Positions 16,608 through 64,000 of a stretch of 64,000 nt of DNA are shown here, in pieces; within the stretch, counting starts at the first letter, position 1, and the number at the start of each line of letters is the position of its first letter. A program made the position numbers and the translations under genes. Source of the DNA: an uncultured Spirochaetota bacterium (lineage in GTDB: Bacteria; Spirochaetota; Spirochaetia; SZUA-6; Fen-1364); assembly GCA_963745235.1 (NCBI GenBank), contig CAVUXE010000045.1, positions 1 through 64,000 of the forward strand, written 5' to 3'. Under the pieces are notes generated by a model. That model saw nothing but the letters and a program-made list of their open reading frames with translations. It was not told the DNA's origin and searched no databases.

Positions 16608-16617
16608 GAGGCATCCA

Positions 16618-17889: not shown

Positions 17890-17892
17890 GGA

Positions 17893-18206: not shown

Positions 18207-18230
18207 GAGCCGGGCGGGCCGCGCCGGTAT

Positions 18231-18707
18231 TTACTGGGCGGTCCTCATGACGATGAGGACGGCGTTTCCCACCTTCTCGGTGGTAATGACGAAGGACTGA
18301 CGGGACGCCGCCCTGTGCGGATAGCTGATGGGTACCGCGCGCAGACCTTCACCCGTCAGCAGGGTGTGCTCCACCGATCTCTTGAGCCTGCACAGAAGGC
18401 AGGCAACGGTGTCTCCGCACCTCCCGAGGGTCCCCGCGTACATGCAGTCGAGTGCTTCTCCGACCCTCAGCCCGATGGTCTCGTTCTCCCGCATCATTCC
18501 CCGAAAGCGGCTGTTGGAGAAGAGAATGGTCTGGTTGTGGTCCACGAGGGCGGACGGCGCCTCCAGGGACTCGAGGTATTCAGAGAGGTTCCTGTCACGG
18601 GAGGAAAGGAGGGCGGTGAAGCACGGACCACAGGTCCTGGTCAGAAGACGAAGGTCGTCTTTCTGGTCCAGACTCTGCCTGCAACGATAGCAAACCGGCT
18701 GACTCAT
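18231..18707 (-). CDS. Hypothetical Cys-rich protein with PAS-like segment
   Basis: CxxC...CxxC N-terminus; ALVD...ILFSN; GEALDC...CG...CLLC. Confidence 0.6.
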   Translation of the reverse strand: MSQPVCYRCRQSLDQKDDLRLLTRTCGPCFTALLSSRDRNLSEYLESLEAPSALVDHNQTILFSNSRFRGMMRENETIGLRVGEALDCMYAGTLGRCGDTVACLLCRLKRSVEHTLLTGEGLRAVPISYPHRAASRQSFVITTEKVGNAVLIVMRTAQ

Positions 18708-18824
18708 CCCGCTGTTGGTCCTGCTGCAATGTACCAGCGTGCCCAGAAAATGGTCAAGATGAAACCGCTTCCGTGGACGGCGGCGCGGCCATTGGATACG
18801 TTTAAGCCGGACAAGGAGAACCGC

Positions 18825-19261
18825 ATGAGCTACTGGCTTGCCAAGAGCGATCCTGAGGCGTACGGGTGGTCGGATCTCGTCCGTGACGGGAAGACTACCT
18901 GGGACGGCGTACGCAACTACAAGGCGCGCAACTTCATCCGCTCAATGAAGCCGGGGACATTGCGCTGTTCTATCACTCGGGCAAGGAGAAGTCCGTGGTA
19001 GGCGCCATGAAAATCCTTTCGGAGCCCTACCGGGACAACACCGCGGAAGAAGAGATATGGTCCGCCGTGGATGTGGCCCCGGGATGGACGCTGAAGAATC
19101 CAGTCCCGCTGTCCCGCATCAAGAGCGAGCCATCGCTGCGCGGCATCCACCTGGTGCGCGAAGGGCGCCTGTCCGTCATGCCGCTCGAAAAGGAGGCGTT
19201 CCAGACCATCGTCTCCCTGGGCGGAGGAAGCACAGCACTGTCCGTAGACCGTCCCCGCTAG
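18825..19261 (+). CDS. EVE domain protein (frameshift ~18955)
   Basis: MSYWLAKSDP...WDGVRNYKARN; FYHSG; RLSVMPL. Confidence 0.88.
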
Positions 19262-19274
19262 GATATTAGTCCCC

Positions 19275-19532
19275 ATGGATACCTGCACGCATCTCGATCA
19301 GATCCGGGAGGTCACCCCGAGCGCCGAGGGGTGTGAAGACTGTCTGAAGATTGGCGACTCCTGGATGCATCTTCGCCTGTGCCTGACCTGCGGTCACGTT
19401 GGTTGCTGCGACTCTTCGAAGAACAAGCATGCGACGAAGCATTTCCATTCCACGGGCCACCCGATCGTCCAGTCCTACGAGCCAGGAGAGGACTGGAAGT
19501 GGTGCTACGTCGATGAGGTGGCACTCGAGTAG
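19275..19532 (+). CDS. UBP-type zinc finger protein
   Basis: CTHL...GCEDC...HLRLCLTCGHVGCCDSS...HATKHF...WCYVD. Confidence 0.92.
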   Translation: MDTCTHLDQIREVTPSAEGCEDCLKIGDSWMHLRLCLTCGHVGCCDSSKNKHATKHFHSTGHPIVQSYEPGEDWKWCYVDEVALE

Positions 19533-19544
19533 TGCGGGTGCGGG

Positions 19545-19743
19545 CTACTGGCGCATCCACAGCGCAGGCTTCATCACCATGAGAAACAGCACGAGGAGCG
19601 CGAGCACGCCCACCACCACGCCTTGTCGTGTACCCCCGCGCGCTGCCGCCCCATATGCCTGCGAACCCACCCCGTGAAGTGATGTTGGCGCCCACGGCGG
19701 TGATTGCCGCAACGACGTGCGTCCCTGAATATCGCGTCGTCAT
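19545..19743 (-). pseudogene. Internally deleted DUF2269-like membrane protein remnant
   Basis: N-terminal HVVAAITAVGANIT and C-terminal GVVVGVLALLVLFLMVMKP in different frames within 199 nt. Confidence 0.5.
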
Positions 19744-19753
19744 CTCCGGGGGG

Positions 19754-20629
19754 TCAAGCCGCCGCTTTGCCGCGTGGCGCTCTCCGCCGGGTTGCCAGGA
19801 CAGAGCCGGCCAGGACCAGGACGAAGCCGACTCCCATGCCGACGGTAAACGTCTCATGCAGGATGGTGATTCCAACCAGTGCAGCAACTGCCGGGTTGAT
19901 GTAGGTGATCACCGTGGCCCGAACGGGTCCGATTGACGCGATCAGCGCGAAAAAAAGCAGGAAGGCGATGGCTGTGCAGACAACGCCAAGCACCACGACA
20001 GAGACGATCACCGCTCCGCCAGGCATTTCCCGCGGCCAATGCATCGCGGCCAGCGGCGCGTAGACCACGGCGCACGCTGCCAGCGAAATGCCAGTGACGC
20101 TCACCGACGGAACGCCGTTCAGATACCGGCTCAGAATAGCGGGTCCGACCGCATAGCCAACGGCAACCAGCGCCATCTGGATGAGCGCGGTGGGGCCGGA
20201 TGCGTGGAAGTCCAGGCCCACGATGGCAGAGACCCCGACCAATCCCAGTGCCAGGCCGCCCAGGCCGAGCGGCCCAATGACCTCCCGGTTGCCGAAGAGG
20301 GGCGCGATGAGAATCCCGACCAGCGGCACGAAGGAGATCAGGAGCCCTGCCAGCGAGCTGGAGATCTGCTGCTCGGCGCTGGAGAGAAAGAACCACGGTC
20401 CGCCGATCTCCGCCGCGGCAAAAGCGAGCAGCGGGATCCATCTCATGCCGATTCCGCGAAGTCCTCCCTTCGCGATGACGATTGGCATCAGGATGAGCGC
20501 GCCAATGGCGGTGCGGCCGAAGACGAGCACGACCGGGGAGATCTCACCGACTGCGACGCGGATCAGAAAGTACGGGATCCCCCAGATGATGCACATTGCG
20601 GCGAACACGAGAGTGCTGTTGCGGCTCAT
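19754..20629 (-). CDS. EamA/DMT family transporter
   Basis: IIWGIPY and RATVITYINPAVA; about 10 TMs. Confidence 0.9.
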   Translation of the reverse strand: MSRNSTLVFAAMCIIWGIPYFLIRVAVGEISPVVLVFGRTAIGALILMPIVIAKGGLRGIGMRWIPLLAFAAAEIGGPWFFLSSAEQQISSSLAGLLISFVPLVGILIAPLFGNREVIGPLGLGGLALGLVGVSAIVGLDFHASGPTALIQMALVAVGYAVGPAILSRYLNGVPSVSVTGISLAACAVVYAPLAAMHWPREMPGGAVIVSVVVLGVVCTAIAFLLFFALIASIGPVRATVITYINPAVAALVGITILHETFTVGMGVGFVLVLAGSVLATRRRAPRGKAAA

Positions 20630-20686
20630 CCCCCGTGTATATCAGACCCCGGGCCCTTTGTCTTGCGTATCCGTTATATTTGGAGG

Positions 20687-21217
20687 ATGAGTGACACGGA
20701 GAAGGCTCTCGGCGCAGCGTACCTGCAGGATATCAGGTCGACTTTTGGCGCGTACAAGGCGCTCGGCGACAAGTCGTTCGCACAGGTGGACGGCACGGAG
20801 ATGCACTGGAAGGCCGACGAGGAGGCCAACAGCATCGCCACCATCATCATGCACCTGAGCGGAAACTTTCTCTCCCGATGGACTGACTTCCTGACCACTG
20901 ACGGCGAGAAGCCGTGGCGAAACAGGGATGGGGAGTTCGAGGAGCCCGCCCTGGGGAAGGAGGAGCTCCTGGCGAGGTGGGAGGCCGGCTGGGCGTGCGC
21001 TTTCGCGGCGCTTGACGCCATCCCGGAGGACGGTCTCCTGCGGGTGATCACGATCCGTGGGGAGCCGCACACCATCGTCAAGGCCCTGAATCGGAACCTC
21101 ACCCACTGTGCGTACCACGTCGGCCAGATCGTGTTCATTGCAAAGGGGCTGAAATCGGGGGATTGGAAAACTCTCTCCATGCCCAAAAGGAAGCCCAGGG
21201 GGTCTGAGCCGTCGTGA
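20687..21217 (+). CDS. DUF1572 / DinB-superfamily protein
   Basis: GGAGG-ATG; NSIATIIMHLSGN, SRWTDFLTTDGEKPWRNRDGEF and HCAYHVGQI. Confidence 0.85.
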   Translation: MSDTEKALGAAYLQDIRSTFGAYKALGDKSFAQVDGTEMHWKADEEANSIATIIMHLSGNFLSRWTDFLTTDGEKPWRNRDGEFEEPALGKEELLARWEAGWACAFAALDAIPEDGLLRVITIRGEPHTIVKALNRNLTHCAYHVGQIVFIAKGLKSGDWKTLSMPKRKPRGSEPS

Positions 21218-21233
21218 CCACGGCGGCCTGAGC

Positions 21234-22673
21234 GTGCTACTATACGGCGTGGCAGTGCCTGCTGGAACGCCCCCTGAGCGCAGCGTCTGGTGCAACAGGA
21301 CCCTCAACCTGCGCGCCATCAAGGCGGTTGGATACGACATGGATTACACCCTCGTGCATTATCGCACGGGGGAGTGGGAGCGGGCCGCATTCGAGCGCGC
21401 CCTGGGGCCGTTGGAGCGCCGCGGCTGGCCGGTGAAGGACCTCACCTTCGACCCCGCGAGCGTCATCCTGGGGCTCGCCTTCGACCTGGAGCTCGGCAAC
21501 CTCGTCAAGGCCACGCGCTTTGGCTACGTCATCAAGGCCCGCCATGGCACACGGCCGCTGTCGTTCGACGAGCAGCGCTCCGCGTACTCCAGCACCTTCG
21601 TGGATCTCTCGGATCCACGCTGGGACTTCATGAACACGCTGTTCTCCCTGTCCGAGGCGAACCTCTTTGCCCAGCTGGTTGACCTCCTGGACGCGGACAG
21701 GCTGCCGGAGACCCTTGGATACAGGGACCTGCACCATGTTCTCAGAACGGCGCTGGATGAGGCGCACAACCTCAGCGAGCTGAAGCCCCAGATCATGGCA
21801 GACCCGGATCGGTTCGTGGAGCTGGACCCCGAGCTGCCGCTGACCCTCCTTGACCAGAAGATGGCGGGCAAGAGGCTGCTGCTGATCACGAACTCCGACT
21901 GGGCATACACCCGCGCCATGATGAGCTACACCTTCGACCGCTTCCTCCCGAGCTCAATGAAGTGGCGGGAGCTGTTCGATCTCATCATCGTTGAGGCGCG
22001 AAAGCCGGGGTTCTTCTCCGGCCGCCAGGCCCTCTACAAGGTGACGGAAGAGGAGCAGGGGCTGCTGCGCCCCTCCCGCGGGCCGCTGGAGCCGGGGAGC
22101 GTCTATGTCGGTGGTGACGCGCAGCTGGTGGAATCCAGCCTGAGCCTCTCCGGAGCAGAGATCCTGTATCTTGGAGATCACCTCTTCGGTGACGTGCACG
22201 TCAGCAAGGAGATGCTGCGCTGGCGTACAGGCCTGATCCTTCGGGAGATGGAGTCCGAGATCCAGGCCCTGGAGAAATCGAGCGAGATCGACGCGCAGCT
22301 GTGGGAGCTCATGAGCAGAAAGACGGAGGTGGACAGGAGGCTCGCGCAGCTTCGCCTGGAAAGGCAGCGCCTGCAGAAGCGTTACGGGCCACGGCCCGCC
22401 GTGAGCCCCGCGGACCTGGAGACGTCCCTCCGCAGTGTCGCTGAGGAAAGCCAGGATCTGGATGCGCGGATAGCGCCGCTTGCGAAGTGCCTGGGAGAAA
22501 TGGGCAACGCTGCATGGGGGCCGCTCATGCGCGCGGGCAATGACAAGAGCCTTTTCGCCCGCCAGGTGGAGCGCTACGCTGATGTGTACACGTCACGGGT
22601 GTCGAACTTTCTTGCGCAAACACCCTTTGCTTACCTGCGGGCAGCGCGAGGCTCGCTCCCTCACGAAGGCTGA
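21234..22673 (+). CDS. HAD-IG family 5'-nucleotidase (cN-II-like)
   Basis: GYDMDYTL, LITNS, ARKPGFF, YLGDHLFGD and RYADVYTS. Confidence 0.92.
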   Translation: MLLYGVAVPAGTPPERSVWCNRTLNLRAIKAVGYDMDYTLVHYRTGEWERAAFERALGPLERRGWPVKDLTFDPASVILGLAFDLELGNLVKATRFGYVIKARHGTRPLSFDEQRSAYSSTFVDLSDPRWDFMNTLFSLSEANLFAQLVDLLDADRLPETLGYRDLHHVLRTALDEAHNLSELKPQIMADPDRFVELDPELPLTLLDQKMAGKRLLLITNSDWAYTRAMMSYTFDRFLPSSMKWRELFDLIIVEARKPGFFSGRQALYKVTEEEQGLLRPSRGPLEPGSVYVGGDAQLVESSLSLSGAEILYLGDHLFGDVHVSKEMLRWRTGLILREMESEIQALEKSSEIDAQLWELMSRKTEVDRRLAQLRLERQRLQKRYGPRPAVSPADLETSLRSVAEESQDLDARIAPLAKCLGEMGNAAWGPLMRAGNDKSLFARQVERYADVYTSRVSNFLAQTPFAYLRAARGSLPHEG

Positions 22674-50286: not shown

Positions 50287-51634
50287 TCATCGGCCCTTGA
50301 GCTCGCGCTTGCGCCGCGCCGCGGGAAGGATGCCCGCCGGCCGGTAGATCATCATGAGGACGAGGATGATGCCGAACACCAGGCGCTGGTACTTGGAGGG
50401 GTCGAGCTGGTTGGAGAGGTCCTTCCAGTGGAAGTTGATGATCGGGATCACCGCGTCGCTCTGCCGGAGCTGCGCGAGGAAGAGCGAGAAGCTCTGCAGC
50501 ACCTGCAGGTTGAGGAGGGTGACCACCGCCGCGCCGATGATCACTCCGGGGATGCTGCCGATGCCGCCGAGGATGACCATGGTGAGCACGCTCACCGACT
50601 GCGAGGAAGCGTGAAGGATTCGGGGCTGACGAAGGTGCGGCTCGCGGCGAAGAGCACGCCCATGGCCCCGGCGAAGGAGGCGCCGACCGCGAAGGCGCCG
50701 AGCTTGAGCCTGTTCGCCGGGATGCCCATGGCGGTGGCGGCGAGCTCGTCCTCGCGGATGGCCGCCCAGGCCCGCCCGATCTTGGAGTCGTCCAGGCGGT
50801 ACGTGACGATGATCACGGCGACCACCACGAGGACGGCGATGAGGTAGAACAGGATGTTGTAGAACTGGTTGGCCGTCACCGGGTGCCCGACCAGCGGCTC
50901 GAAGAGCGGTTGAAGAAGGCGAGGAGCTCCTGGGCAGGGTCGGCCGCTGGATCGGCGTGATGCCCTGGGGCCCGTTCGTGAGGTTGAGGGGCTTGTCGAG
51001 GTTGTTCGCGAGCTGGCGGACGATCTCGCCGAAGCCCAGGGTGATGATGGCCAGGTAGTCGCCGCGGACGCGCAGCACCGGGCAGGCCGAGGATGAGGCC
51101 GACGATGGCCGCCACGATGATCGCCGAGGAACATGAAGAGGTAGAACCAGTCGGGCGCCAGGAAGAAGGGCGTGCCGGGCGGCGCGGTGCCGGGTATCGC
51201 GTGGAGGAGGAAGGGCTGCTGGGAGCCGAAGAAGCCCCAGAGGTAGGCGCCCACCGCGTAGAAGGCCATGTAGCCGAAGTTGAGCAGGCCGGAGAAGCCC
51301 ACCACGATATTGAGGCCCGAGGGCCAGGGCCGAGAAGACCGCGATCTGGAAGATGACCTCCAGGTAGAAGATGTTGCGCGCGCCCGAGGATCGGCACGAG
51401 GACCACCGCGACGAGGACGGCCAGGGCGAGCTGTGCCGGCTTCTTCATGTCGCAGGAAGTAGGCGAGCGACGCTGCCGCCGACGAAGAGGAGGAAGGCGG
51501 GGATGGACCGCGGGCTCAGGTAGACGAGGACGAACCCTGCGGCGATGACAGCGCCGGTCAGCGAGTACGGCGTGGCGCCCCTGTTGCAGGACGCCGAGGA
51601 AGCGGCGCGCCATGTCCCGAAGCGTGGTTCTCAC
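50287..51634 (-). CDS. livM: Branched-chain amino acid ABC permease (many frameshifts)
   Basis: [34 protein letters not shown] and YRPAG. Confidence 0.85.
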
Positions 51635-51644
51635 CTCGCACCCC

Positions 51645-52836
51645 CTATGCCTTCTGCGAGACCTGCTCGCCGAGCAGTCCCGAGGGGCGGAAGATGATGA
51701 CGATGATCAGCACCAGGAAGGCGATGATATCCTTGTACTCGGACCCGAAGGCGCCCCTGGTGAAAGTTCCGAGGTAGGCGCCCGCGAAGCTCTCGAGCAT
51801 GCCAAGGACAATGCCGCCCAGGAGGGCGCCGGTGAGGTTGCCGATGCCGCCGAGGACGGCGGCGGTGAAGGCCTTGATGCCCGGGCATGAAGCCGACGAA
51901 GGGGTCGATGCGCGTGAACTTGAGGGCGTACAGGACGCCCGCCGCGCCGCCGAGGGCGCCGCCCATGAGGAAGGTGAAGGAGATGATCGCGTTGACGCCG
52001 ATGCCCATGAGGGCGGCGGTGGTGCGGTCCTGGGCCACCGAGCGGATGGCCTTGCCGATCTTGCGTCGCGTTGACGATGTAGTTGAGGCCGACCAGCATG
52101 AGGACGGCCGCGCCGATGACGACGAGCGACTTGACCTGGATGTCGACGCAGGGTGGCGTCCTGCCCGGTCGGGAGGGAGAAGAGGGGCAGGCGCTTGTCG
52201 AAATTGCCGAAGGTCGGGAATGACCCGGTAGAACTGGCCCGTCGTGAGGCTCTCCACGAGGCGGATGATGTCCTGCAGGGCGAAGGAGACGCCGATGGCC
52301 GAGATGAGGGGCACGAGCTGGGGCGAGTTGCGCAGGGGCCGGTAGGCCGTCCGCTCCACGAGCATGGCCATGCCGCCCGCGGCGGCCATGGCGACCGACG
52401 AGGGCGAGGGTGAGATAGAGGTAGGAGCCCATGGGGCCGGCGGCCTTGCAAGCACGCCGAGCTTGTCCATCGCGATGAGGAACTCCACGCCCGCGAAGGC
52501 GCCGATCGCGAAGATCTCGCTGAATGGGCGAAGTTGATGAACTCGAGGACGCCATAGACCATGGTGTAGCCCAGGGCGATGGCGGCGTAGACGAAGCCGA
52601 GGGTCACGCCGTCGATGAGGACCTGGGGCAGGTTGTTGAGGGTGTAGGCGACGATGCTGACGCCCTGCGTGTCATGGAGGAGCTTGTCCGCCCCCGAACC
52701 CTGCGCAGAGGAGGGCGAGGACGAACATCAGCGCGGAAAAGAGCGCGCCCGCGCCGGCGACGAAGACCGCCATCCTGCCCAGGGGCAGGAAGATCTCCCG
52801 CAGAGCGCGATCCGAGCTCTCATGGATCTTTCGCAT
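51645..52836 (-). CDS. livH: Branched-chain amino acid ABC permease (many frameshifts)
   Basis: ALGYTMVYG...INFAH, KAFTAAVLGGIG and FRPSGLLG. Confidence 0.85.
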
Positions 52837-52897
52837 AGCGAGCCTCCACCCGGAGACCGGGGAACGGAGCGTCTCACCGCATCCTGGTCCCGAAAGG

Positions 52898-52931
52898 CCC
52901 CCGCCCCGCGGAGACTCCGCGGGAGCAGGGG
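52898..52931. terminator. GC-rich hairpin between livK and livH
   Basis: CCCGCGGAG-A-CTCCGCGGG core with flanking CCCC/GGGG. Confidence 0.5.
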
Positions 52932-52947
52932 CGAGCAACGGTTGAGA

Positions 52948-54146
52948 TCAGCCACTGCGGAGGAGCGATGTCCAGGGTCTGGTCGATCTTGTTGGCCGAC
53001 CACTTGGCGGGATCTGCCGAGGTGACCTGGATGATGAAGTACTTGGCCTTGGTGAGGTCGCCCTTGGCGTTGAAGTTGATGGTGCCGGTGATGCCCTTGA
53101 AGTCCTTGAGGGCGCGGACCGCCTTGGCGACATCGGCGCGGGCGGGCAGCTTGTTGCCGGCGGCCATCGGCGGCGTTCTCGATGGCCTTGAGGGCGATGG
53201 CCGCGCAGTCGTAGGACTGGGCGGCGAAGGGCTGGGGCTCGGCGCCGAACTTGGCCTTGAAGTCGGTGATGAACTTGGCGGTGCCGGGGTAGACGCTCGC
53301 GGGGCCGGAGACCGTGGAGTAGTAGGTGCCCGCGCCCTTCAGGAGGGCGTCGCCGCCGATCTTGGCGGCGTCGGAGGAATCGAAGCCGTCGTCGGAGAGG
53401 AACATGCCCTTGAAGCCCTTCTGGCGGGCCTGCTTGAAGAGGACGGCGGCCTGGTCGAACATGCCGCCGAAGTAGATGACCTGGGGCTTGGCGGCGAGGA
53501 TGGGCGAGAGGATGGAGTCGAAGTTGGCCTTCTCCTCGGTGCCGTCGAAGCCGAGCACCTTGATGCCCGAGCTTCTCGGCCTCGTTCTTGAAGTACTCGG
53601 CGATGCCCTGGCCGTAGGCGGTCTTGTCGTGGAGGACGTAGGCGCGTCTTGATGCCCTTGGTGGCGGCGAACTGGGCGCCCACCGCGCCCTGGACGTCGT
53701 CGCGGCCGCAGACGCGGTTGACTTCCAGCGTAGCCGCGATCGGTGACCTTGGGGTTGGTGTTGGCGGGGGAGACGTTGACGAGGCCGGCGGCGTGGTACT
53801 CCTCGGAGGAGGGGATCTGGACGCCGGAATTGTAGTGGCCGACGACCGCGAGGATGGCCGGGTCGGCGACGATGCTCTTGGCGTTGGCAACGCCGGTGTC
53901 CGGGTTGCCCTGGTCGTCGAAGGGCGCGAGCTCGACCTTGAACCCCATCTTGGCCAGGGGTCCGGAAAGCTGCTCGACGGCGAGCTGGGCGCCGTTCTTG
54001 ATGTCGGTGCCGACGGCGGACATGCCGCCGGAGAGCGGGCTCTGGGTGGCGATCTTGATGACCTTGGGAGCGGGGGCTCCGCACCCGGCGAGCACGAGGC
54101 CCGCAAGGGCAAGTATTGCAAGAAAGAGAAAGACGGACTTTCGCAT
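52948..54146 (-). CDS. livK: Branched-chain amino acid ABC substrate-binding lipoprotein (frameshifts)
   Basis: Lipobox LAGC; PLSG, VVGHYNSG, DKTAYGQG and GITGTINF. Confidence 0.88.
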
Positions 54147-54485
54147 GGGTTCTTCCTCCTTAGAAGCTGGCTTTGAATCTTGTTTTTTCAAGACAGGAGC
54201 CGCGTGATTCCGGCGCGGATCCCGCTGCGAGGTGGCTGGTCTCTATAGTTCCGGCGCCCCTCCTTCCAGAGTTCGGGCACGTTCCCTGCCCTGGTCTCAT
54301 TCACCTGCGCTGCACCGGCGTTCGACGAGCCCGCAGAGGATGCGGGAGTCTAGACGCTGGAGGCCAGGACGTCAAGATTGCGTTCTACTCCGCCGCGATG
54401 GCCTTCTTTGGACAGCACATTACATTCTTAGAATAATCCCTTCGGGGGCCGAACGGAAAGGATTTTGTCGGGAAGGAGGCGAGCG

Positions 54486-55599
54486 ATGAGAGAAACCGCG
54501 GAACAGGTCATTACCGAAATCGAGATCAGGCGCTTTACCATCCCGTTGCGCGGGTCGGTTCAGATCTCCACCATGAACATGGAACGCGCGGAGAACCTGC
54601 TGGTAAAGCTTGTCAGCAGCGACGGTGTATGCGGCTGGGGAGAAGCATCACCCATGCGGTCCATCACGGGAGAAACGCAGGCGATTGACCTTGCGGCCGC
54701 GGCAGAGCTGAGGACGCTCCTCCTGGGCAGAAACCCGCTGGCCATCGGCGCCTTGTCAGCCTTGATGGCCCGGCATCTCCCTCACAATACGACCATCCGA
54801 AGCGCGTTCGATATGGCGCTCTATGACATCGCCTCACGGTACGCCTCCATGCCCTTGTACCGGTTCCTTGGAGGGGAGCAACGCGACCTGGAAACCGACA
54901 TTACCATCTATATCGGTGATCCTGGCGAAGCAGGTGCGCGGGCTGAGCAGCTCCTCCGCGCCGGTTTCCGCGTCATCAAGGTCAAGGTAGGGCTCGATCG
55001 GGGAGACGACCTCAAGAGGGTTGATGTGATTCGCCGGGCAATCGGCAAGACGCCGAGACTGCGAATAGACGCGAACCAGGCGTGGGGCCGGACCGGCCGC
55101 CTTGAGCATGCTCCGTTCTCTGGAGGAGCATTCGATCGAGTTCTGCGAGCAGCCCTGCCTTGCCGCTGACCTCAGGACCCTGAAGTTCCTTTCCGCGAAC
55201 AGCCCCATCCCGATCATGGCGGATGAATCCCTCTTCAGCCCGCAGGATGCCCTTGCACTGGATCGCGACGATGTCGTGCCCTATTTCAATATCAAACTGA
55301 GCAAATCCGGTGGACTCTACCAGGCCCAGCGGATTGCGCACATTGCTGCCGCGGGCGGACGGGTCTGCATGATAGGAGGCATGTCCGAGTCCCGCCTGGG
55401 AGTGACGGCGGCAGCGCATTTTGCCCTGGCCAACCCGATAGTCGAGTTCTGCGATCTCGATTCTTTCTATGAGCACCGGGACGATCCGATCCACGGAGGG
55501 TTGACCATTCGAGACGGGAAGGTAATTGTCCCCGACGAACCCGGGATAGGCGCCGTGCCGGATGAGTCATATCTTGCATCTCCCCCCGCCCGCGTATAG
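54486..55599 (+). CDS. Dipeptide epimerase (enolase superfamily; frameshift ~55090)
   Basis: GWGEA, KVKVG, RIDAN, EQP, MADES, NIKLSK and DLD. Confidence 0.88.
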
Positions 55600-55622
55600 G
55601 ATCGCCTCCGGGCAGCTGAGTC

Positions 55623-58600
55623 ATGGCGTCCAACAAGAGGAAACACACGCGCGTCGATCACCGCGCAGCCGTGGAGCTCACGTCGGAGTCCTCCATATTT
55701 CCCGGTACGTCTGTCAACGTCAGCGTGAGCGGAATGCAGGTGGTGGTCGGACTGCCGGCGTCGTACGATTCGATCCAACGTATTGCATTTCATATCCCTG
55801 GCTCTGATAAGCGCGTCGAGCTGCCCTGCCGGCTGATTCGCAACTCGGAGCACGACGGTGAAGGTGACCAGGTCCTGGGCCTGGAGTTTCTCTATGAAGC
55901 CGATGCCCAGCTCCTGCTCATAGAGAAGTTCATCCAGGACAGCCAGCCGGGCCGGGACGATGCGCGCCAGCTTCCTCGAACTTCCTGCCGCCTTGACGAT
56001 GTCACGGTCGATACCCCCGCCTTTCACGTCCTCTCAATCGACAATCTCTCCACCGAGGGAATGCTCCTGAGCTTTCGCGGGAACCTGAAAGAAGGGGACG
56101 CGCTCGCCATGAGCGTCGGCATTCCCGGCGACGACCGCCGTCTTGGCCTCTCGGGAACGGTCGTCTACGTTGTCGAGAACGTGTTTCGCGGCTCCCTGAC
56201 GGCCGGCGTTCGATTGTCGACCTTGAAAGAGACCGAGGAAAGCCGACTCAGGAATCTCATCGTCGCCTGCTCATCAGGGAGCGCATTGCGCGGACTGCAC
56301 GAGCATCTTCATTCCAAGGAGATGGAACCCGAGTCCCGAATTGTAGATCCGGTCCTGATCGGCGACATCCTGCATTCACTGAAAGTGGAATGCGTTCGAT
56401 TGAGCACCCTGGTGGAAGGATCTTTCACCATCATCGAGCACGAGCTCGAAGGCGTTGACCTTGGATTGCAGCGGTTTGCAATCAGAGCAGGCAGCGAGCT
56501 TGCCACACGCAGTCTCGGACCGGGGGCGACGGCGTACTTCAGCTTCTATTGGAAGAAGGCCAGCTACTATTTCAAGGCGGTCGTGGGCTCCGCCCGTGAT
56601 GATCTCCTCAGGTTTTCCTTTCCGAGCGTCATGTTCCGCTCGGACAAGAGGTCATACCAGAGAAAGCCGCTGGAGAGCGCCTCCCGCGCAAGGCTCGCAA
56701 TACGCGGGCATACGTTCGAGGGGACACTGATCGATATCAGCCGCAGGGGGTTTCTCTGCGAGCTTCACCTTCCTGCCGAATCCCAGGCATTCTTCCAGAA
56801 AGGAAAAAGCCTTCACTACACCGTGGATGACAGGCTCGGGCTGGGAAGCGAAGGCCAGATCCGGCACCTGAGAGTGCTGCCAGCGCCGGAGGGCGTCGTT
56901 CTGCAAGTGGGCGTGGAAGCGGGAATCGGGAGAAACGCGGTGCGCTTCCGGCGCATCCCAGCCGAAAAATGGGAAGAAAGAACCTCTCGCAGCGGCGGCC
57001 TCCCGGGTTCTGAACGACGCATCGAGTCTCATTTCGTGCGGTTTCCCGACCGGGCAGGCCATGAGATCTGCGCCCTGCTCAATGCGACCGAGCTGCGAGT
57101 CAAAGCCCCGGTCGTCATCATTCCTTCCGCGTACGGGAAAAAGAAGGAAGCATTCTCTCCCCTCGTGGCGACTCTGCTCGCGAGCTTCTGGAGCGAGGGG
57201 AGAAACATAGTCACGCTCCGCTATGATGGCGTCAATCGTCCGGGTGAAAGCCATCGGGACGAGATGAACCCGAAGCGCGGGTACGAAATGCTCACCTACA
57301 GGATCAGTCAGGGGCTCGGTGATCTCGAGGCGGCGTTGGATTTCGCGAACGATAACCCATACTTCGTTGCTGAAAAGGTGATCGTCATCTCCTTCAGCAT
57401 GGCCGCCATCGATGTGCGGCGCTTCCTGAGCCGGGATGAAGGCACGGCAATCGACTACTGGGTCAGCGTCATGGGGGTTCCTTGCGCGCAAACGACTCTG
57501 CGCAACATCCTCGGCGGAATCGATATCGTCAGCAACTATCGCCTGGGAATCCCCAACGGGATCATAGGGCTGTTGGGGCATCTGATCGACATGGACATCA
57601 CGGCCGCTGATTTGGTCGACAGAAGGTACGCCTTCCTGACCGACGCGCGCCTCGACATGTCTCGAATCGCAATTCCCGTGCTGTGGATCTACGGCCTGTA
57701 CGACAGATGGGTCGACATCGATGAGGTGAAGGACCTCATGTCGGTCAAGGCGCCGGGGAGACGCGAGATTGTCGAGATCCCCACCGGACACAACCTGCGC
57801 ACCAGCGACGATGCCATCGAGACTTTCAAGCTGATCACGGCCTCCATCCATGAGGAGCTCTACGGCACGCGGATAGTGGCCCGAGACCCATGGAAGGAGG
57901 AGATGATTCGCCTGCTCACCGAGGAGCGTGAGCGTCTCCAGAACAGGGTCGCTCCCCCTCTGACCGAATACTGGCGCGGGTACCTGCTCGGAAACGAAAG
58001 GAATCGCGTCGGCTACGACTTCTACAGGAACATTCCGGAGTTCACCGACTTCCTCAGAACGCAGGCAAAGTGCCTGGCGCTCGGGGAAGGGGAGATCATT
58101 GCCGACCTGGGTTGCGGGACCGGCATTTTCCTGGAGGCGCTGCTGGACTTCATCGCTGAGGCGGGAGCGCGAATATCGGCAAAGGAGATCATGGCCGTTG
58201 ACCTCGTTCCGGATGCCCTGGACAAGGCGCGGCAAAAGTGTGAAGACGCTCTTGCCTTGAACCCCCGCCTGCGGAGCATTCACTTCCAGTACGCGCAAAA
58301 GAACCTGGAGCCCAATCGGCTCATTCCCGTTTCGCGCTTCATCGAGTCGAAGGTGCCTTCCCTCGATTCACTGAGGAACAAAATCGAGGGCCTTTCAGGA
58401 AAAGTGCTGGACAGTCTCATAGAACGCGCATCTCCCGACGTGTACGCCGTGATGCGCGGCGGGACGCCGGAGGGGGAGCCCTTTCTAAGGTTGAAATCGA
58501 CGCTGCAAGCCGTCGAGCTTCAGACGGTCCTGGAGTTCAACAGGGCGGCCCGATACCTCTTGCACAGGCTCGAGAAGCATGACTTGAGACCTGACCGGAT

Positions 58601-59122
58601 TTCGGAAAATGTTTCCCTGGAATGCCTGCGCACGAGCGATCTGGTGTTCGAGAAGCTCAACTTTGGAGACTATGATTCCAATCTCGGACTGGGCTTGCCC
58701 GGCGAACCATTTCACCAGGATCGTCGCAAGTCTCTTCATCTCGTATCTCCATAACCCTGACTACGCGCTTGCCGAATGCTACAGAATGTTGAAACCAGGC
58801 GGCATCCTCCTTGTCTCCTCCATGAAGCCTGACAGCGACATCTCAATGATGTTCACCAACTATATCAGGAAGACGCTGACCCCGAATTGCTCCGAGGATG
58901 ACGGGATGGAAAATGGGGTGAGCGGCGCACGGGCCATGCTGAATGAGGCCGCCAGTCTCTTCGAGCTGGAAGAGGACGGCTTTTTCAGATTCTACACGCT
59001 CGAAGAGCTGAAAGACCTGCTGGCTGACGCTGGATTCGTTGAGGTCACCGGTGCTTTCTTCCATGGGAGACCCTCCTCAGGCTTGCATCGCAGTTGCAAA
59101 AAAGACCTTGACAACATCTTAG
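55623..59122 (+). CDS. Multidomain protein: three PilZ domains + LuxD-like alpha/beta hydrolase + class I SAM methyltransferase (frameshifts ~58700 and ~59055)
   Basis: RKHTR/NVSVSG, RQLPR/NLSTEG and RSYQR/DISRRG; LRYDG, SFSMA, DRWV and GHNL; DLGCGTG; ECYRMLKPGG. Confidence 0.8.
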
Positions 59123-59135
59123 ATTACTCTACAAT
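59108..59135 (+). promoter_or_regulatory. Sigma70-type promoter for the ligase-ACP-radical SAM-kinase unit
   Basis: TTGACA-N16-TACAAT in an AT-rich patch. Confidence 0.65.
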
Positions 59136-59174
59136 AGCCACTATACCAAAAAACTCCACTAGGAATGAAATCAA

Positions 59175-60569
59175 ATGGTTGGAATAGGGAGAAAGATAGA
59201 CGAAGCGTTGCATGACTGGGGCGATTCGCCTGCATTTCTTCAAGTCACCCAGGCGAACGGGGCCACTGTCATCCCCTCCATCGCGTTCTCGCAGAAGATC
59301 TTGGAGATTGCGAGCCAACTCCAGGCATGGGGGATCCGAGAAAAGTATCTCGTTCCGATTTTCCTGGGCAACTCGACAGATTTCATTGCCATCTTTCTTG
59401 CCCTGATTCGCATCGGCGCGATCCCCGTCCTCGCCAAGCTGGACTACCGAACGCTGGAGCTCGACGAAGTATTCGCCAACGCGCAGCCGCAGGCGGTGAT
59501 AGCTGAGAAAGAGCACCTCCGGCACCTGTCGCCATACCTCCACAATTCCATCGTTATCGTTCGATCAGGGGATCAGTTCCTGCTGGAACAGTCCGTCGAG
59601 GGCCTGACGCGCCGGGAGGACATTCCCGACGATATCGCGTCCATCAACTATACCTACCGCGGGTACGGGTATCCGCTGGGGGCCATGATCTCCCATGACC
59701 AGTACCTTCACGGCGCCAGGGTACTGCAGGACGGGCTGCAGGGGTCTGCGGGAGAGAAGATGCTCATTATCCTGCCGATGGCGCACATTTTCACGATGGT
59801 AGGATGCGTCCTGGTCCCCTTGCTCTACCGGATGACCAGCGTCATTGTCGATACGTTGCACCCCCGACTTCTCTTTCAATACATTCGTGATTTCCGTATC
59901 GAGCACATCACATCCGTTCCGGAAGTTTACGAGCTGCTCTACCGGCTCCGCGACCCCGCGGTCGACCTTTCCTCACTGAAGGTCTTTGTGTCGGGAGGCA
60001 GCATCCTGACCCCTGACAGCTACGCGAATCTCAAGAGGGCCTTTTCGATCGACCTGCTTCATGGATACGGCCTGACGGAGTTCACTCCGGTCAGCCGCAA
60101 CATGCGAGGTAAGTCCCGGTCGGGAACGGTCGGACCCCTGTGTGACCTCGTGGAGTGCCGAATCGACTCTTGCAGCCCCGGCGGGGCAGGAGAGATCCTG
60201 ATCAGGACGCCGCATATGACGGGTACGTACTACCGCAGGCCGCGCGAGTCGGCCGAGGCGCACAACGATGGCTGGTTCAGGACGGGGGACATGGGCCGTA
60301 TCGATGCGGGACACCTTGTATTCGTGAAAGAGTTGAAGAATACGCGCAAGATAAATGGAAATCTCGTGGACATCGAAGAGGTCACACGCGCCCTCAAGCT
60401 GGACCCCGATGTGGCGGACGCACAGGTGGGTTGGGAGAGCAACTCCCTGTTCGCGCGGGTCGCGGTGAGCCAGCGCATCGACTTCGATGAGAAGGCGAGA
60501 CGTATGAAGTCCCTCCTCAGAGAGGTCATAGCGGAGTACAAGGTTCCGAAACGATTCAGCGTGCTTTGA
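59175..60569 (+). CDS. AMP-binding (ANL superfamily) acyl ligase, atypical
   Basis: LPMAH, SGG, GYGLTE and WFRTGD; P-loop region reads YTYRGYGYPLG. Confidence 0.85.
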   Translation: MVGIGRKIDEALHDWGDSPAFLQVTQANGATVIPSIAFSQKILEIASQLQAWGIREKYLVPIFLGNSTDFIAIFLALIRIGAIPVLAKLDYRTLELDEVFANAQPQAVIAEKEHLRHLSPYLHNSIVIVRSGDQFLLEQSVEGLTRREDIPDDIASINYTYRGYGYPLGAMISHDQYLHGARVLQDGLQGSAGEKMLIILPMAHIFTMVGCVLVPLLYRMTSVIVDTLHPRLLFQYIRDFRIEHITSVPEVYELLYRLRDPAVDLSSLKVFVSGGSILTPDSYANLKRAFSIDLLHGYGLTEFTPVSRNMRGKSRSGTVGPLCDLVECRIDSCSPGGAGEILIRTPHMTGTYYRRPRESAEAHNDGWFRTGDMGRIDAGHLVFVKELKNTRKINGNLVDIEEVTRALKLDPDVADAQVGWESNSLFARVAVSQRIDFDEKARRMKSLLREVIAEYKVPKRFSVL

Positions 60570-60602
60570 CGAAAGCACCTGCCCTGAGGAGGGATACGGC
60601 AG

Positions 60603-60878
60603 ATGGGCAATGTGCAGGAAAACTGGAACCCGGATAAGTTCAAGAAGGAAATCAAGCAGATCGTTTCGAAAATTTCCCGAATCGAAGCAGCGGATCTGGA
60701 GGACCACCTTCTGATTCGCGAAGAGCTGGGAATCGACAGCCTGATGGCAATGGAGATTATCGCCACCTGCGAAAAGCTCCTGCGACTGAAGATCGACGAA
60801 ACACTGTTCGGTGAAATACAGACTGTCGGAGACTTTCTTGACCTTCTCGTAACGCTCTCAGGGCGGGCGGATGCGTGA
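60603..60878 (+). CDS. Acyl carrier protein
   Basis: LGIDSL phosphopantetheine motif; TVGD; AGGAGG SD. Confidence 0.92.
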   Translation: MGNVQENWNPDKFKKEIKQIVSKISRIEAADLEDHLLIREELGIDSLMAMEIIATCEKLLRLKIDETLFGEIQTVGDFLDLLVTLSGRADA

Positions 60879-62190
60879 GTCCCGGATCCGCATCCTTCTT
60901 GTCTCCCCCAAGGGGGAGTTTCTCTGTCGATCGCCCGAGTTCGGAGAGTTCATGCAGAGCTCACGCGACATGCGGACCATTCTGCACTTCTGGAACGGAA
61001 TTGGTGTCGCGCTACCGACGCTCGCCGCTCTGACACCGCCTTCGTTCGAAGTATTCATCGTTGACGAGAACATGGAGCCCATAGACTTCAGTGCTCCGTG
61101 TGACATTGTGGGCGTTACCGCCATGACCCAGCAGGCCACACGAGCCTATGAAATCGCGGATGAGTTTCGAAGGAGAGGGCGTCACGTAGTTCTTGGAGGC
61201 ATCCACGTGACTGCACTGCCCGGTGAAGCGATGCATCACGCGGACACGGTCATTGCGGGTGAGGCGGAAAACCTGTGGCCCAAGTTCCTGCAGGACTTTC
61301 AATCGGGAACGACACGTCGTATCTACGATCAGGAAGGGATCTCGCCCGTGGACATGACTCGCATCCCTGTGCCCCGCTACGAGTTGCTCGCGAAGTATCG
61401 CTACCCGGTTGTATACGTTCAAGCGACGCGCGGATGTCCGCACGATTGCGAGTTCTGTGTTGCGTCCAACATCTACGGGAAAAGATACAAGCACAAGACC
61501 GTTCAGCAAGTCGTGAACGAGGTCACGGAGGCGAAAAGGCTCTGGAAATACGCGCAAATCGGCTTCGCGGATGACAACATGTTCGTTGATCACGCGTACT
61601 CGACTGAGCTCGTCGAAAGGCTGAAGGAGCTGAAAATTGCCTGGTTCGCGATATGCGACATCGCCGTTGCCAAGGACGAAGCATTCCTCCGCCTGCTCCA
61701 CGAGAGCGGGTGCCGCACTCTCCTCATTGGATTCGAGAGTGTGTCCAAGACAAGTCTCCACGGCATGAACAAAGACGCGTGGAAACAAAAGCGATTCGAT
61801 TCCTACCCGGAGTATATCCGGAGAATTCAGAGCCAGGGGATCGGCGTCTATGGATCCTTCATTCTCGGGCTGGACGATGACGGTCCTGAGTCGATCGATG
61901 CGACTGTTAATTTTGTCAACGATAATATCCTCTTGGGAACACAGATTACTCTTCTCACCCCCTTCCCGGGCAGCCGTCTGCGCTCCCGGCTCGAGCGGGA
62001 GCGGCGGATCGTTCATGATGATTGGAAGTGGTACACCGTTTGGAACTCAGTGATCCGACATCCCAGGTTCACGTCCGAGGAGCTCGAGAGGGGGCTTCTG
62101 CGAGCGTACGAAGGGGTGTATAATCCCGAGAGCAACGCCAGGCGTGCCCAGTATTTTCGAAAGGTGTGCGAAAATCTCGTCGAAGGGTAG
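60871..62190 (+). CDS. B12-binding domain radical SAM protein
   Basis: LGGIH and GEAE N-terminal domain; RGCPHDCEFC; DDN, GFES and TPFPGS. Confidence 0.93.
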   Translation: MRESRIRILLVSPKGEFLCRSPEFGEFMQSSRDMRTILHFWNGIGVALPTLAALTPPSFEVFIVDENMEPIDFSAPCDIVGVTAMTQQATRAYEIADEFRRRGRHVVLGGIHVTALPGEAMHHADTVIAGEAENLWPKFLQDFQSGTTRRIYDQEGISPVDMTRIPVPRYELLAKYRYPVVYVQATRGCPHDCEFCVASNIYGKRYKHKTVQQVVNEVTEAKRLWKYAQIGFADDNMFVDHAYSTELVERLKELKIAWFAICDIAVAKDEAFLRLLHESGCRTLLIGFESVSKTSLHGMNKDAWKQKRFDSYPEYIRRIQSQGIGVYGSFILGLDDDGPESIDATVNFVNDNILLGTQITLLTPFPGSRLRSRLERERRIVHDDWKWYTVWNSVIRHPRFTSEELERGLLRAYEGVYNPESNARRAQYFRKVCENLVEG

Positions 62191-62192
62191 CG

Positions 62193-64000
62193 ATGGGCTC
62201 TCGGAATCCCGCAATCTCAAGCGACCAACTCTCTTTGCGAGCCGGATTCGAGGCGGAAACCCGAGACAAGGCGGTCCGTGACACCCGTCTCACCGCGATC
62301 GTTGCCAGTATTCTCTTCCTTCTGTTCTGCATTCTCGACTATTTCGCGTATCCGCGTTCGTTCCTTCTTTTTTTCCTGATACGGTGCGTGGTCGTGCTTG
62401 GCAGCGGGCTGATCTTTCTCCTGATGTGGACCCAAGTTGGCACGAGGCATCCCCGGCTTTTTGCCATGCTGGAGTACATGTTGTGCGGCTCGGGAATCGT
62501 GCTCATGGTCCATTTGTCGGATGGGTATGCCAGCCCATACTACGCCGGGGTCAACCTGGTCCTGATGGCGTTCATTTCCATCATTCCCCTCGACGCAAAA
62601 AGAACAGCGCTGATATGCACCATTCTGTATGCAATTTACCTGATTCCGATCCTCGCCCTGCAGAGGATCATCCACTTCCACATTTTCCTGAACAACAACT
62701 TCTTTCTTGTTGCCACTATTGTTCTCGTAGTCCTCAGCTCGCGCCTTGCCACTCAGATGCGATTTCGGGAGTTCAGCGCGAGGTTCAATCTCGCCCGTGC
62801 GAATGAGGAACTGAAGAAGCTGGACATCCTGAAGTCGCAGTTCTTCGCGAACGTGAGTCACGAAGTCCGCACTCCACTCACTTCCATCCTGTCTCCCATC
62901 CAGAGCCTGTACCAGGGGGACCTCGGACCACTGAATCCCGACCATCAGACGGCTGGTGGGCCAGGTCTATCGCAACTCGCTCAAGCTGCTCGACATGATC
63001 AACCAGATGCTTGACTTCTCGAAGTTCGAGGCCCGCAAGATGCAGCTTCACCTCAGGCACCTGGATATCGACGAGCTCGCCCGAGACATCGTCACCACAT
63101 TCCAGGACGTCACGGAACGAAAGGGATTGAAGCTTCGCTACGTGAGGGAAGGGGAGCTGCGGCCCGCCTATCTCGATGCGGAGAAACTGGAGAGGATTCT
63201 CACCAACCTCATACGCAATGCCATCAAGTTCACGGAAAGTGGCTCCATCACGGTTCGCGCCGGCGCCAGCCTCAAGCAATCGATTGGGTCGAAGTCAGGG
63301 ACACCGGCATCGGCATTCCCTCGCAGCACCTGGCGAACATCTTCAACAGATTCCAGCAGGTGGATTCCTCCAGCACGCGAAAATATGAGGGCACGGGGCT
63401 TGGGCTTACTATCGTCAAAGGAGTCGGTGGATCTGATGAAGGGAAGCATCAAGGTCCAGAGCGAGGAGAGCACGGGGCACGGCATTCCGCGTCGAGCTGC
63501 CGACCAACCTGGACACAGCTGGTTCCCGACGCATTCATCGACAGGCGGAAGGATCAGCCGCGCCGGCAGACCGCGGACGATTTCGACGGAGAAGAGAGAA
63601 GAAGACAGGCGCGCCGGGAATCGGACCAGTCGCGAGGATCAGCGTGGACGACCTCGCGCTCATAGAGAAAGAGACCATGGAGCGTCGGAGCGGGGAGAGG
63701 ACGGCGTCTTCGCCCACGCCGGGCAACGGCAAGGCGGACCGTGTCCTTCTGGTGGAAGACAACATCGACCTCAGGGCATACATCAGCAAAATGCTTTCGC
63801 GTTTCGGACATGAAGTGGCGACGGCGATCGACGGGCTGGACGGCTGGGAGCACGCGCAGACAGACCTTCCCGACCTCGTGGTCTCGGACATCATGATGCC
63901 CCGCATGGACGGGTACGAGCTGGTCAGCCGCATCAAGTCAACCGACACGACCCGCCACATCCCGGTGATCCTGATCACGGCGAAGCCGGAGCTGGAATCG
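62193..64000 (+). CDS. Multi-TM hybrid sensor histidine kinase with receiver domain (frameshifts; runs off the window)
   Basis: About 6 TMs; [11 protein letters not shown]-box, [17 protein letters not shown] and GTGLGL; REC VEDN...[10 protein letters not shown]...ITAK. Confidence 0.9.

Follow-up and report, generated by a model that had tools for sequence, protein, structure and literature searches.

Locus and domain organization

The DNA analysed in the current study is a 64,000-nucleotide (nt) stretch (the window) of contig CAVUXE010000045.1, from assembly GCA_963745235.1 of an uncultured Spirochaetota bacterium. It carries a gene that combines three PilZ domains, an alpha/beta hydrolase similar to the acyl-acyl carrier protein (acyl-ACP) thioesterase LuxD, and a class I S-adenosylmethionine (SAM) methyltransferase in what appears to be one polypeptide. 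From the N-terminus, the domain order is PilZ1, PilZ2, a YcgR-N-like (xPilZ) domain, PilZ3, hydrolase and methyltransferase. The gene is followed by a group of genes for acyl activation, an acyl carrier protein (ACP), a radical SAM enzyme and a membrane sensor kinase. The features are listed in table 1, in which all positions refer to the forward strand of the window and amino acid (aa) numbers to the window protein.

Table 1. Features of the PilZ-hydrolase-methyltransferase gene and of the genes downstream of it.
Feature	Position (nt)	Strand	Residues (aa)	Basis and details
Whole gene, PilZ x3 / LuxD-like hydrolase / methyltransferase	55623..59122	+	~1165 aa in length	read-through of two single-base insertions
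PilZ domain 1	55632..55934	+	4-104	PF07238, 44.3 bits when scanned alone; R6xxxR10 (RKHTR, aa 6-10, nt 55638), N32xSxxG37 (NVSVSG, aa 32-37)
PilZ domain 2	55983..56261	+	121-213	PF07238, 29.0 bits when scanned alone; R115xxxR119 just upstream (RQLPR, aa 115-119, nt 55965), N141xSxxG146 (NLSTEG, aa 141-146)
YcgR-N-like (xPilZ) domain	56334..56627	+	~238-335	profile match to PP4397; lies before PilZ3
PilZ domain 3	56643..56906	+	341-428	PF07238, 26.8 bits when scanned alone; R343xxxR347 (RSYQR, aa 343-347, nt 56649), D371xSxxG376 (DISRRG, aa 371-376)
LuxD-like alpha/beta hydrolase	57030..57902	+	~470-760	triad; 1THT profile and fold match
S592, in SFSMA	57396-57398	+	592	predicted nucleophile; aligns to LuxD S114
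D694, in DRWV	57702-57704	+	694	aligns to LuxD D211
H723, in GHNL	57789-57791	+	723	aligns to LuxD H241
Class I SAM methyltransferase	57981..59122	+	~787-1165	motif I D828-G830-G832; ~130-aa helical insert; over three frames in the window
First extra base, one G of GG	58701..58702	+		+1 shift after codon 1026; alignment to the relative P0001
Second extra base, G	59053..59053	+		renewed +1 shift; alignment to P0001, short-read contigs
ANL (AMP-forming) acyl ligase, 464 aa	59175..60569	+		PF00501, E 2.1e-50
Acyl carrier protein, 91 aa	60603..60878	+		PF00550, E 6.6e-10; DSL motif
B12-binding radical SAM enzyme, 439 aa	60871..62190	+		PF04055 and PF02310
MASE8-like sensor histidine kinase-REC-HD-GYP gene with six transmembrane segments (6TM), start	62166..64000	+		tblastn with the orthologue from related locus L001

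Reading frame and assembly quality

As assembled, the gene is spread over two open reading frames (ORFs), 55623..58754 (+, 1043 aa) and, overlapping it in the next frame, 58609..59187. All three frames of the window were aligned to the closest relative among the matches listed, a 1165-aa protein (P0001) with 98% identity (1005 of 1030 residues). Compared with P0001, the window shows two +1 frameshifts, and three-frame translation places the real stop at the TAG at 59120-59122. The 3500 nt of the span equal 1165 codons, a stop codon and two extra bases, so that 55623-59122 is exactly the read-through gene. In the preliminary description of this locus the same span had been treated as a single gene; the span and the fusion hold, but because of two extra Gs the gene is not one ORF as assembled.

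The frameshifts were compared with contigs from four public metagenome runs of four studies, aligned to positions 54000-64000. These short-read contigs are mostly 95-99% alike to the window and represent related strains, identity with the strain of the window being unproven. Two runs, X2 and X4, are listed with a contig at 59053, and neither has the extra base. Around 58701/2, the sole read-level support comes from two spanning contigs (records 22 and 28), each with one gap somewhere along its length. At least 12 single-base differences occur at 54-64 kb, and among the places listed all are an extra letter in the window (55095, 59053, 62948, 63265, 63416, 63473, 63518, 63635, 63638, 63688, 63691 and 63721), with a cluster in the sensor kinase gene from 62948 to 63721. 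The base at 55095 is missing from the contigs of all four runs.

Related genes are intact. No frameshift or internal stop was found in any of the 70 related loci that hold both halves of the methyltransferase; 66 of them reach the stop in one frame, and the remaining four run off their contig. Among 401 sampled genomes of the phylum, seven others had a match, with open frames of 1178-1206 aa, compared with 1044 in the window. Most relatives (114 of 120, among the matches listed) have a length of 1100-1260 aa.

If the frameshifts were real, the window copy would be a decaying pseudogene, or the C-terminus of the methyltransferase would be made as a separate product. The assembly as given does carry two +1 shifts, and within the 90% cluster of P0001 the members on long contigs (82-163 kb) are short as well (1019, 1043 and 1112 aa). 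Against this, three members of the same cluster, on contigs of about 5 kb, have the full 1165 aa, and at the break the second ORF piece lacks its own start. The listed differences, each a single extra window base relative to the contigs of four studies, also extend into the neighbouring genes, a distribution which is the pattern of assembly insertion errors. With the 66 orthologous loci intact and the other four incomplete only at a contig end, real frameshifts are extremely improbable. Since the base at 59053 is absent from the short-read contigs, many similar insertions occur at 54-64 kb and 66 complete orthologues are in a single frame, the two frameshifts are most likely insertion errors of the assembly, rather than a result of pseudogenisation. 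All complete orthologues carry the methyltransferase, which could have proved to be a separate gene, within this one gene, and the frameshifting base at 59053 is missing from short-read contigs.

The insertion pattern suggests an indel-prone (long-read-type) assembly, and the many single extra bases make ORF calls in this genome unreliable. Upstream, a mandelate racemase/enolase-superfamily gene (54465-55599) is split into ORFs 54465..55169 and 55102..55599, and the break between them falls at the additional base at 55095. At 51631-54191, on the minus strand, genes of a branched-chain-amino-acid-type ABC transporter (permease, substrate-binding protein) were recognized by eye in all three frames, which is probably the same assembly problem. 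Metagenome runs from soil, peat, sediment and wetland contain at most 0.45 of the words of the window stretch, and no habitat claim is drawn from them.

PilZ and YcgR-N-like domains

Pfam detected PilZ on the long ORF in three stretches (E 8.6e-24), and each of the domains, when scanned separately, exceeded the gathering score of 22.5. The three complete pairs of an RxxxR with a (D/N)xSxxG motif lie where the preliminary description had placed them. For conservation, the window protein was aligned with the 114 listed matches of 1100-1260 aa (115 sequences), and the six remaining matches, of 827-1074 or 1328 aa, were excluded. In PilZ1, R6 is kept in 102 sequences, R10 in 103, N/D32 and S34 in 108 each and G37 in 107, the exceptions being mostly gaps from cut N-termini. 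In PilZ2, R115, R119 and G146 are present in all 115 sequences, N141 in 113 and S143 in 114; in PilZ3, R343, R347 and G376 are likewise invariant, with D/N371 in 112 and S373 in 113. Since each domain scored over the Pfam cut-off and 102-115 of the 115 sequences retain the motif residues, the motifs are more than chance occurrences.

A YcgR-N-like spacer had also been proposed before the third PilZ domain. No PilZN model of Pfam scored on the window protein in the Pfam scan. Positions 248-433 of a profile built from 35 full-length members did match the YcgR-like protein PP4397 (2gjg_A, E 8.9e-5; 3kyf_A, E 1.3e-4), which supports the assignment of this segment as a YcgR-N-type domain.

The PilZ domains might also have lost c-di-GMP (cyclic diguanosine monophosphate) binding and act purely as scaffolds or in protein-protein contacts. 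Surveys of PilZ proteins describe many divergent domains in which binding has been lost (bioRxiv 10.1101/814665, 10.1101/2020.02.11.943704). In the family studied here both motifs are retained by all three domains, as well as by the shorter subfamily described below, and in 50 of 50 loci the operon itself encodes a HD-GYP domain of the c-di-GMP phosphodiesterase type. A purely structural role is considered highly unlikely.

The LuxD-like hydrolase

LuxD is the myristoyl-ACP thioesterase / acyl transferase of the lux fatty acid reductase; it takes the acyl chain of acyl-ACP onto a serine and then releases it. The hydrolase motifs of the window protein were found at the positions given in the preliminary description, and the predicted Ser-Asp-His triad (S592/D694/H723) is invariant in all 115 sequences. 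In an HMMER search of the PDB with a profile of 52 hydrolase domains, LuxD (1THT) was the best and the only significant match (E 3.7e-5; next match 0.37), and the alignment superimposes the two triads residue for residue (table 1). The LuxD residue that corresponds to S592, Ser114, is described as the acylated residue and as part of the catalytic triad (PMC6279958).

The predicted structure agrees with the profile. An AlphaFold2 (AF2) model of aa 461-786 had a mean predicted local distance difference test score (pLDDT) of 91 and a predicted template modelling score (pTM) of 0.90, and contains a LuxD-like fold including the cap. With this model as query, 1tht_B took the first rank in Foldseek (E 8.7e-16, template modelling (TM) scores 0.74/0.81), followed by other alpha/beta hydrolases with TM scores by query of about 0.52-0.64. 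VIA-align likewise placed 1tht_B first (Z 29.6, root-mean-square deviation 2.9 A, 279 of 293 residues), the next entry having a Z of 25.8. The likeness to LuxD that had been proposed from short motifs is therefore borne out by the modelled fold and by the aligned triad. A further resemblance is the non-canonical nucleophile motif, which is x-S-x-S/A here and A-S-L-S in LuxD, as opposed to G-x-S-x-G.

The LuxD family of Pfam, PF02273, reached its cut-off in four of six relatives in one scan and in four of 14 in another; these eight of 20 scanned relatives scored 23.7-40.6 bits, and the other 12 were below the cut-off or without a match. The orthologue from locus L001 passed with 25.4 bits. In NCBIfam, the LuxD models NF052253 and NF010127 were the top matches of the L001 hydrolase, at 23.8 bits compared with cut-offs of 420 and 529, and they gave 13 bits for the window protein. 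A status as LuxD equivalog or orthologue was rejected on these scores and on the missing lux operon context. Identity to LuxD is only about 16%, and the domain differs further in being fused to PilZ domains and a methyltransferase. On profile and model grounds, the hydrolase domain is predicted to work like LuxD and is best described as a distant relative that probably belongs to the LuxD family of Pfam, not as a LuxD orthologue.

The methyltransferase domain

The SAM-binding motif DLGCGTG noticed previously starts at aa 828 and belongs to a class I methyltransferase encoded in the same gene; all 115 sequences retain D828, G830 and G832. P0001 passed several Pfam class I models, including Methyltransf_11 (49.4 bits) and Methyltransf_23 (48.2 bits). 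In the window, Pfam placed the first half of the domain on the long ORF and the second half on the short ORF, and the domain scores as fragments only because of the frameshifts.

The AF2 model of the L001 methyltransferase (pLDDT 88) is of Rossmann type and carries an inserted helical stretch of about 130 residues between two of its strands. Both the PDB profile search and Foldseek with this model returned only generic class I methyltransferases, among them RebM, Coq5, CmoA, phosphatidylethanolamine (PE)/phosphoethanolamine N-methyltransferases and LahSB; the insert accounts for Foldseek TM scores by query of no more than 0.44. The NCBIfam BioC model (TIGR02072) scored 36.5 bits, compared with a cut-off of 184.95, and membership in BioC was rejected on this score.

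Docking of PilZ3 to the hydrolase

The xPilZ-PilZ3 segment (aa 236-462) was docked to the hydrolase (aa 461-786) with two c-di-GMP molecules included, the ligands being unscored. The docking score was 0.80, compared with 0.01 for the best of three controls. Of 157 solved complexes 116 attained this mark, as did two of 215 mismatched pairs; these counts apply only roughly to the present case, in which own alignments were used and a ligand was included. At least 80% of the contacts were shared between the runs, and the partner had a pLDDT of at least 83. On the PilZ side, the confident contacts involve aa 338-345 (around RxxxR), 375 (in DxSxxG) and 432-454; on the hydrolase side, they involve aa 627-649 (the cap), 670-680, 703-721 and 727-737, the last two flanking H723. 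The docked model fits the idea that PilZ3 gates the active site with its ligand-binding face.

Downstream genes

The window neighbours were searched by tblastn on 74 related genome loci, and counts refer to the 52 loci that extend at least 4.5 kb downstream. The gene order downstream of the PilZ-hydrolase-methyltransferase gene is fixed across related loci, with the PilZ gene as the first gene. The ANL ligase is directly downstream in all 52 loci, and the ACP and the sensor kinase are also present in 52 of 52. The B12-binding radical SAM gene is downstream in 42 loci and elsewhere in the locus in three more. The upstream enolase-family gene was found in none of the 74 loci, which places the left boundary of conservation at the start of the PilZ gene. 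In the window, the ACP and radical SAM genes overlap by 8 nt and the radical SAM and kinase genes by 25 nt. Across the operon the G+C content declines, with about 0.67 at 50-54 kb, 0.60 at 54-58.5 kb and 0.53-0.58 at 58.5-63 kb.

The neighbours thus consist of ligase, ACP, radical SAM enzyme and sensor kinase, and the suggestion that a LuxD-like domain occurs here outside a lux operon is confirmed. The ligase scored below every NCBIfam cut-off, and its nearest solved structures are acyl-/aryl-CoA and carrier-protein ligases. The best NCBIfam match of the radical SAM enzyme was HpnJ (115 bits, cut-off 577.6).

The sensor kinase gene continues past the end of the window to about position 64713 of the contig and is riddled with single-base insertions; its domains were assigned on the L001 orthologue (16584-19100). 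In Pfam, that protein has HisKA, HATPase_c, REC and HD_5/HD (HD-GYP; PF13487, 121.8 bits) domains after about 200 membrane residues. Of the loci long enough to contain the four parts of the gene, all 50 do so and 48 retain the HD and GYP motifs, and the window contig carries REC and HD-GYP past nt 64000, across three frames. The membrane domain (L001 16584-17200; window 62166-62790) has no Pfam match; it resembles MASE8 in an Atlas structure search (TM 0.88), which is a lead only.

Some variation was seen around the radical SAM gene. Among the closest relatives, it is a fragment in L005 and L002, and it is replaced by a copy of about 40% identity, either on the opposite strand downstream (L007) or upstream (L004). 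The flanking genes stay 60-80% identical. Beyond the operon, L001 carries a cluster of BatA/VWA, DUF58 and MoxR-type AAA genes (19137-22103, minus strand), which as far as checked is not conserved with the window.

The wider family and a shorter subfamily

An exhaustive HMMER search with the hydrolase domain found 431 cluster representatives (50% identity) at E <= 0.001, of which 228 were at <= 1e-30. Nearly all of the matches listed are proteins of 0.5-1.2 kb-aa with the domain in the middle. A methyltransferase follows the hydrolase in all 14 relatives sampled, and their N-termini vary, with PilZ, REC and PilZ, or nothing visible to Pfam. The database names of such proteins are 'PilZ domain-containing protein', 'methyltransferase domain-containing protein' or COG-style labels.

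A common form of about 820 aa aligns to the window protein from aa 238 on, and its architecture is thus xPilZ-PilZ-hydrolase-methyltransferase. In 30 sequences of this form, the PilZ residues R119, R123, D152 and G157 are invariant and S154 is kept in at least 90%; the triad S379, D480 and H509 is also invariant. The context of this subfamily was analysed in 26 metagenome loci with at least 3.5 kb downstream. In 24 of these a homologous 6TM-histidine kinase (HK)-REC gene lies downstream, in which a second HATPase domain replaces HD-GYP, and in 14 an MMPL-family transporter lies between the enzyme and kinase genes. Ligase, ACP and radical SAM genes were found in none of the 26 loci. These loci reduce the conserved core to a putatively PilZ-gated hydrolase-methyltransferase and a membrane sensor kinase, and the combination of enzyme, exporter and kinase argues for a product that is either inserted into the membrane or moved out of the cytoplasm.

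Two of the short-form loci, L079 and L110, were scanned with Pfam, and in both a REC-GAF-HK gene follows the kinase gene. The operons (L110 7908-17267, L079 7932-15013) encode an xPilZ-PilZ-hydrolase-methyltransferase of 840-859 aa, an MMPL transporter in L110 only, a 926-aa 6TM-HisKA-HATPase-REC-HATPase protein and a REC-GAF-HisKA-HATPase protein.

Proposed function

From the predicted domains and the conserved neighbourhood, it appears probable that the gene encodes one receptor-enzyme of about 1165 aa which releases and methylates an acyl chain under the control of c-di-GMP, its frameshifts being errors of the assembly. The ligase would load an acid onto the ACP, where the radical SAM enzyme would tailor it. 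The LuxD-like domain would take the acyl chain from the carrier protein onto Ser592 and release it, and the methyltransferase would methylate the released product, most simply by converting a carboxylate to a methyl ester. Binding of c-di-GMP at the PilZ domains would switch the hydrolase on or off, with the switch running through the PilZ3 module packed on the cap and the His-loop region of the hydrolase. The HD-GYP output of the neighbouring sensor would set the c-di-GMP level that the enzyme reads.

Several observations weigh against this proposal or narrow it. The docking represents model confidence only, and since the docked pieces are consecutive in one chain, some proximity between them is trivial. 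For the hydrolase of the window itself, no Pfam family reached its cut-off, the best being PF02273 with 16.5 bits (cut-off 20.3), and with scores so far under the LuxD equivalog cut-offs the substrate and chain length of LuxD cannot be transferred. As the methyltransferase has only generic class I matches, O-, N- and C-methylation are all possible and no substrate class can be named. The shorter subfamily lacks ligase, ACP and radical SAM enzyme, so these are not required for the core reaction. All members seen are from uncultured organisms, and the short-read contigs behind the frameshift correction belong to related strains. The order of the steps may also differ. The LuxD-like domain could draw on housekeeping acyl-ACP in a first step, after which the ligase would activate the freed acid again, in the way that LuxE follows LuxD; alternatively, it could act last and off-load the private ACP.

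A different assignment would be membrane-lipid remodelling. The LuxD-like domain would then be an acyltransferase to a lipid or other acceptor, the methyltransferase would act on a lipid head group or chain, and the kinase would sense the state of the membrane, giving c-di-GMP-dependent homeostasis with no signal molecule. Consistent with this, the sensor has an integral-membrane MASE8-like domain, lipid transporters of the MMPL family occur in 14 of the 26 short-form loci, and the best family matches of the radical SAM enzyme, HpnJ and TIGR04072, are lipid-tailoring. The methyltransferase profile also weakly matches PE/phosphoethanolamine N-methyltransferases and cyclopropane-fatty-acyl-phospholipid synthase (E 1e-4 to 4e-6), but these matches are generic class I similarity over the motif regions and lie under any family cut-off. 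Moreover, no membrane segment turned up in the Pfam or AF2 outputs for the enzyme, and nothing identifies the acceptor. Lipid remodelling is therefore regarded as rather unlikely.

The enzyme could also work like BioC and BioH, which similarly combine a class I methyltransferase with an alpha/beta hydrolase on ACP-bound acyl chains. In such a 'methyl-ester disguise', the methyltransferase would cap the carboxylate of a dicarboxylic acyl-ACP for the radical SAM enzyme or others, and the hydrolase would later remove the methyl ester, not a thioester. The operon does have its own ACP and ligase, automatic names given to relatives at JGI include 'pimeloyl-ACP methyl ester carboxylesterase', and BioC is among the top NCBIfam matches of the methyltransferase. 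That match is nevertheless far under its cut-off and tied with unrelated methyltransferase families, the hydrolase is nearest to LuxD, an acyl-ACP thioesterase/transferase, and not to a BioH-type esterase, and the shorter subfamily has no ACP, ligase or radical SAM gene. A disguise of this kind is accordingly judged very unlikely.

Comparison with known systems

To our knowledge, PilZ-enzyme fusions are known mainly from polysaccharide synthases. BcsA (cellulose synthase) and Alg44 are listed as such fusions (10.1101/814665), and as in these proteins the PilZ domains studied here share a polypeptide with the catalytic domain that they are thought to gate. BcsA and Alg44, however, belong to membrane polysaccharide synthase systems and have one PilZ domain, whereas a soluble acyl hydrolase/methyltransferase is combined here with three. 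Residues ~238-433 match both domains of the YcgR-like protein PP4397 (PDB 2GJG, 3KYF; E ~1e-4), including a C-terminal PilZ domain with binding motifs. YcgR-type proteins are described as acting in trans on flagellar motors (10.1101/814665, 10.1101/2020.02.11.943704), while the module of the window protein shares its chain with an enzyme, in cis, and has two more canonical PilZ domains before it. A PilZ-thioesterase or PilZ-methyltransferase fusion was not found in the literature searched, including these two surveys, whose supplements might list it.

With respect to LuxD, the operon resembles the lux system in that an AMP-forming acid-activating enzyme is encoded adjacent to the LuxD-like domain, as LuxE follows LuxD in function (PMC6279958). 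It differs in having no luxC, luxE, luxA or luxB neighbours, and a PF00501 ligase and an ACP take the place of LuxE.

Two signalling systems share the gene logic of the operon, and no homology of the systems or their synthases is claimed. In Ralstonia, the methyltransferase PhcB makes methyl 3-hydroxymyristate, which is sensed by the membrane kinase PhcS (PMC8578825, PMC11960443); the enzyme and the nearby multi-transmembrane kinase of the window recall this pair, although the Phc system has no PilZ, LuxD-like or HD-GYP domain. In the Rpf system of Xanthomonas, a fatty-acid signal is derived from acyl-ACP by the thioesterase-active RpfF, with a linked ligase, RpfB, and the membrane hybrid kinase RpfC senses the signal and activates the REC-HD-GYP phosphodiesterase RpfG (PMC8042644). 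The operon of the window parallels Rpf in a predicted acyl-ACP-derived product, a ligase, a membrane kinase and a REC-HD-GYP output. RpfF, however, is a crotonase and not an alpha/beta hydrolase, the Rpf synthase is not PilZ-gated, and kinase and HD-GYP regulator are separate proteins in Rpf but one protein here.

These parallels raise the idea of a self-contained lipid-signal circuit, in which the enzyme would make a molecule of the fatty-acid methyl-ester type, the adjacent MASE8-like kinase would sense it, and the REC-HD-GYP part would lower c-di-GMP and thereby feed back on the PilZ domains. In the subfamily of the window, the chain would be prepared on the private ACP by the ligase and the B12-binding radical SAM enzyme; in the shorter subfamily, the product would be exported by the MMPL transporter. 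This extended circuit is speculative and, as a whole, distinctly unlikely. If it did exist, one operon would unite the logic of Ralstonia Phc with that of Xanthomonas Rpf, forming a loop for quorum sensing or for membrane state. Such a loop would have a wide distribution among uncultured Spirochaetota, Desulfobacterota, Acidobacteriota and other groups of soil and sediment.

Significance

The family described in the current study is large and conserved, and it places an acyl-ACP thioesterase-type domain and a methyltransferase under PilZ domains, of which there are three in the branch of the window. The kinase of the same branch carries a HD-GYP domain of the c-di-GMP-degrading type. A link of this kind between a second messenger and lipid-signal chemistry has no description in the literature searched. 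If the proposed c-di-GMP-gated release and methylation is correct, c-di-GMP would directly control the making of a fatty-acid-derived molecule in these bacteria, with a dedicated sensor encoded beside the synthase.

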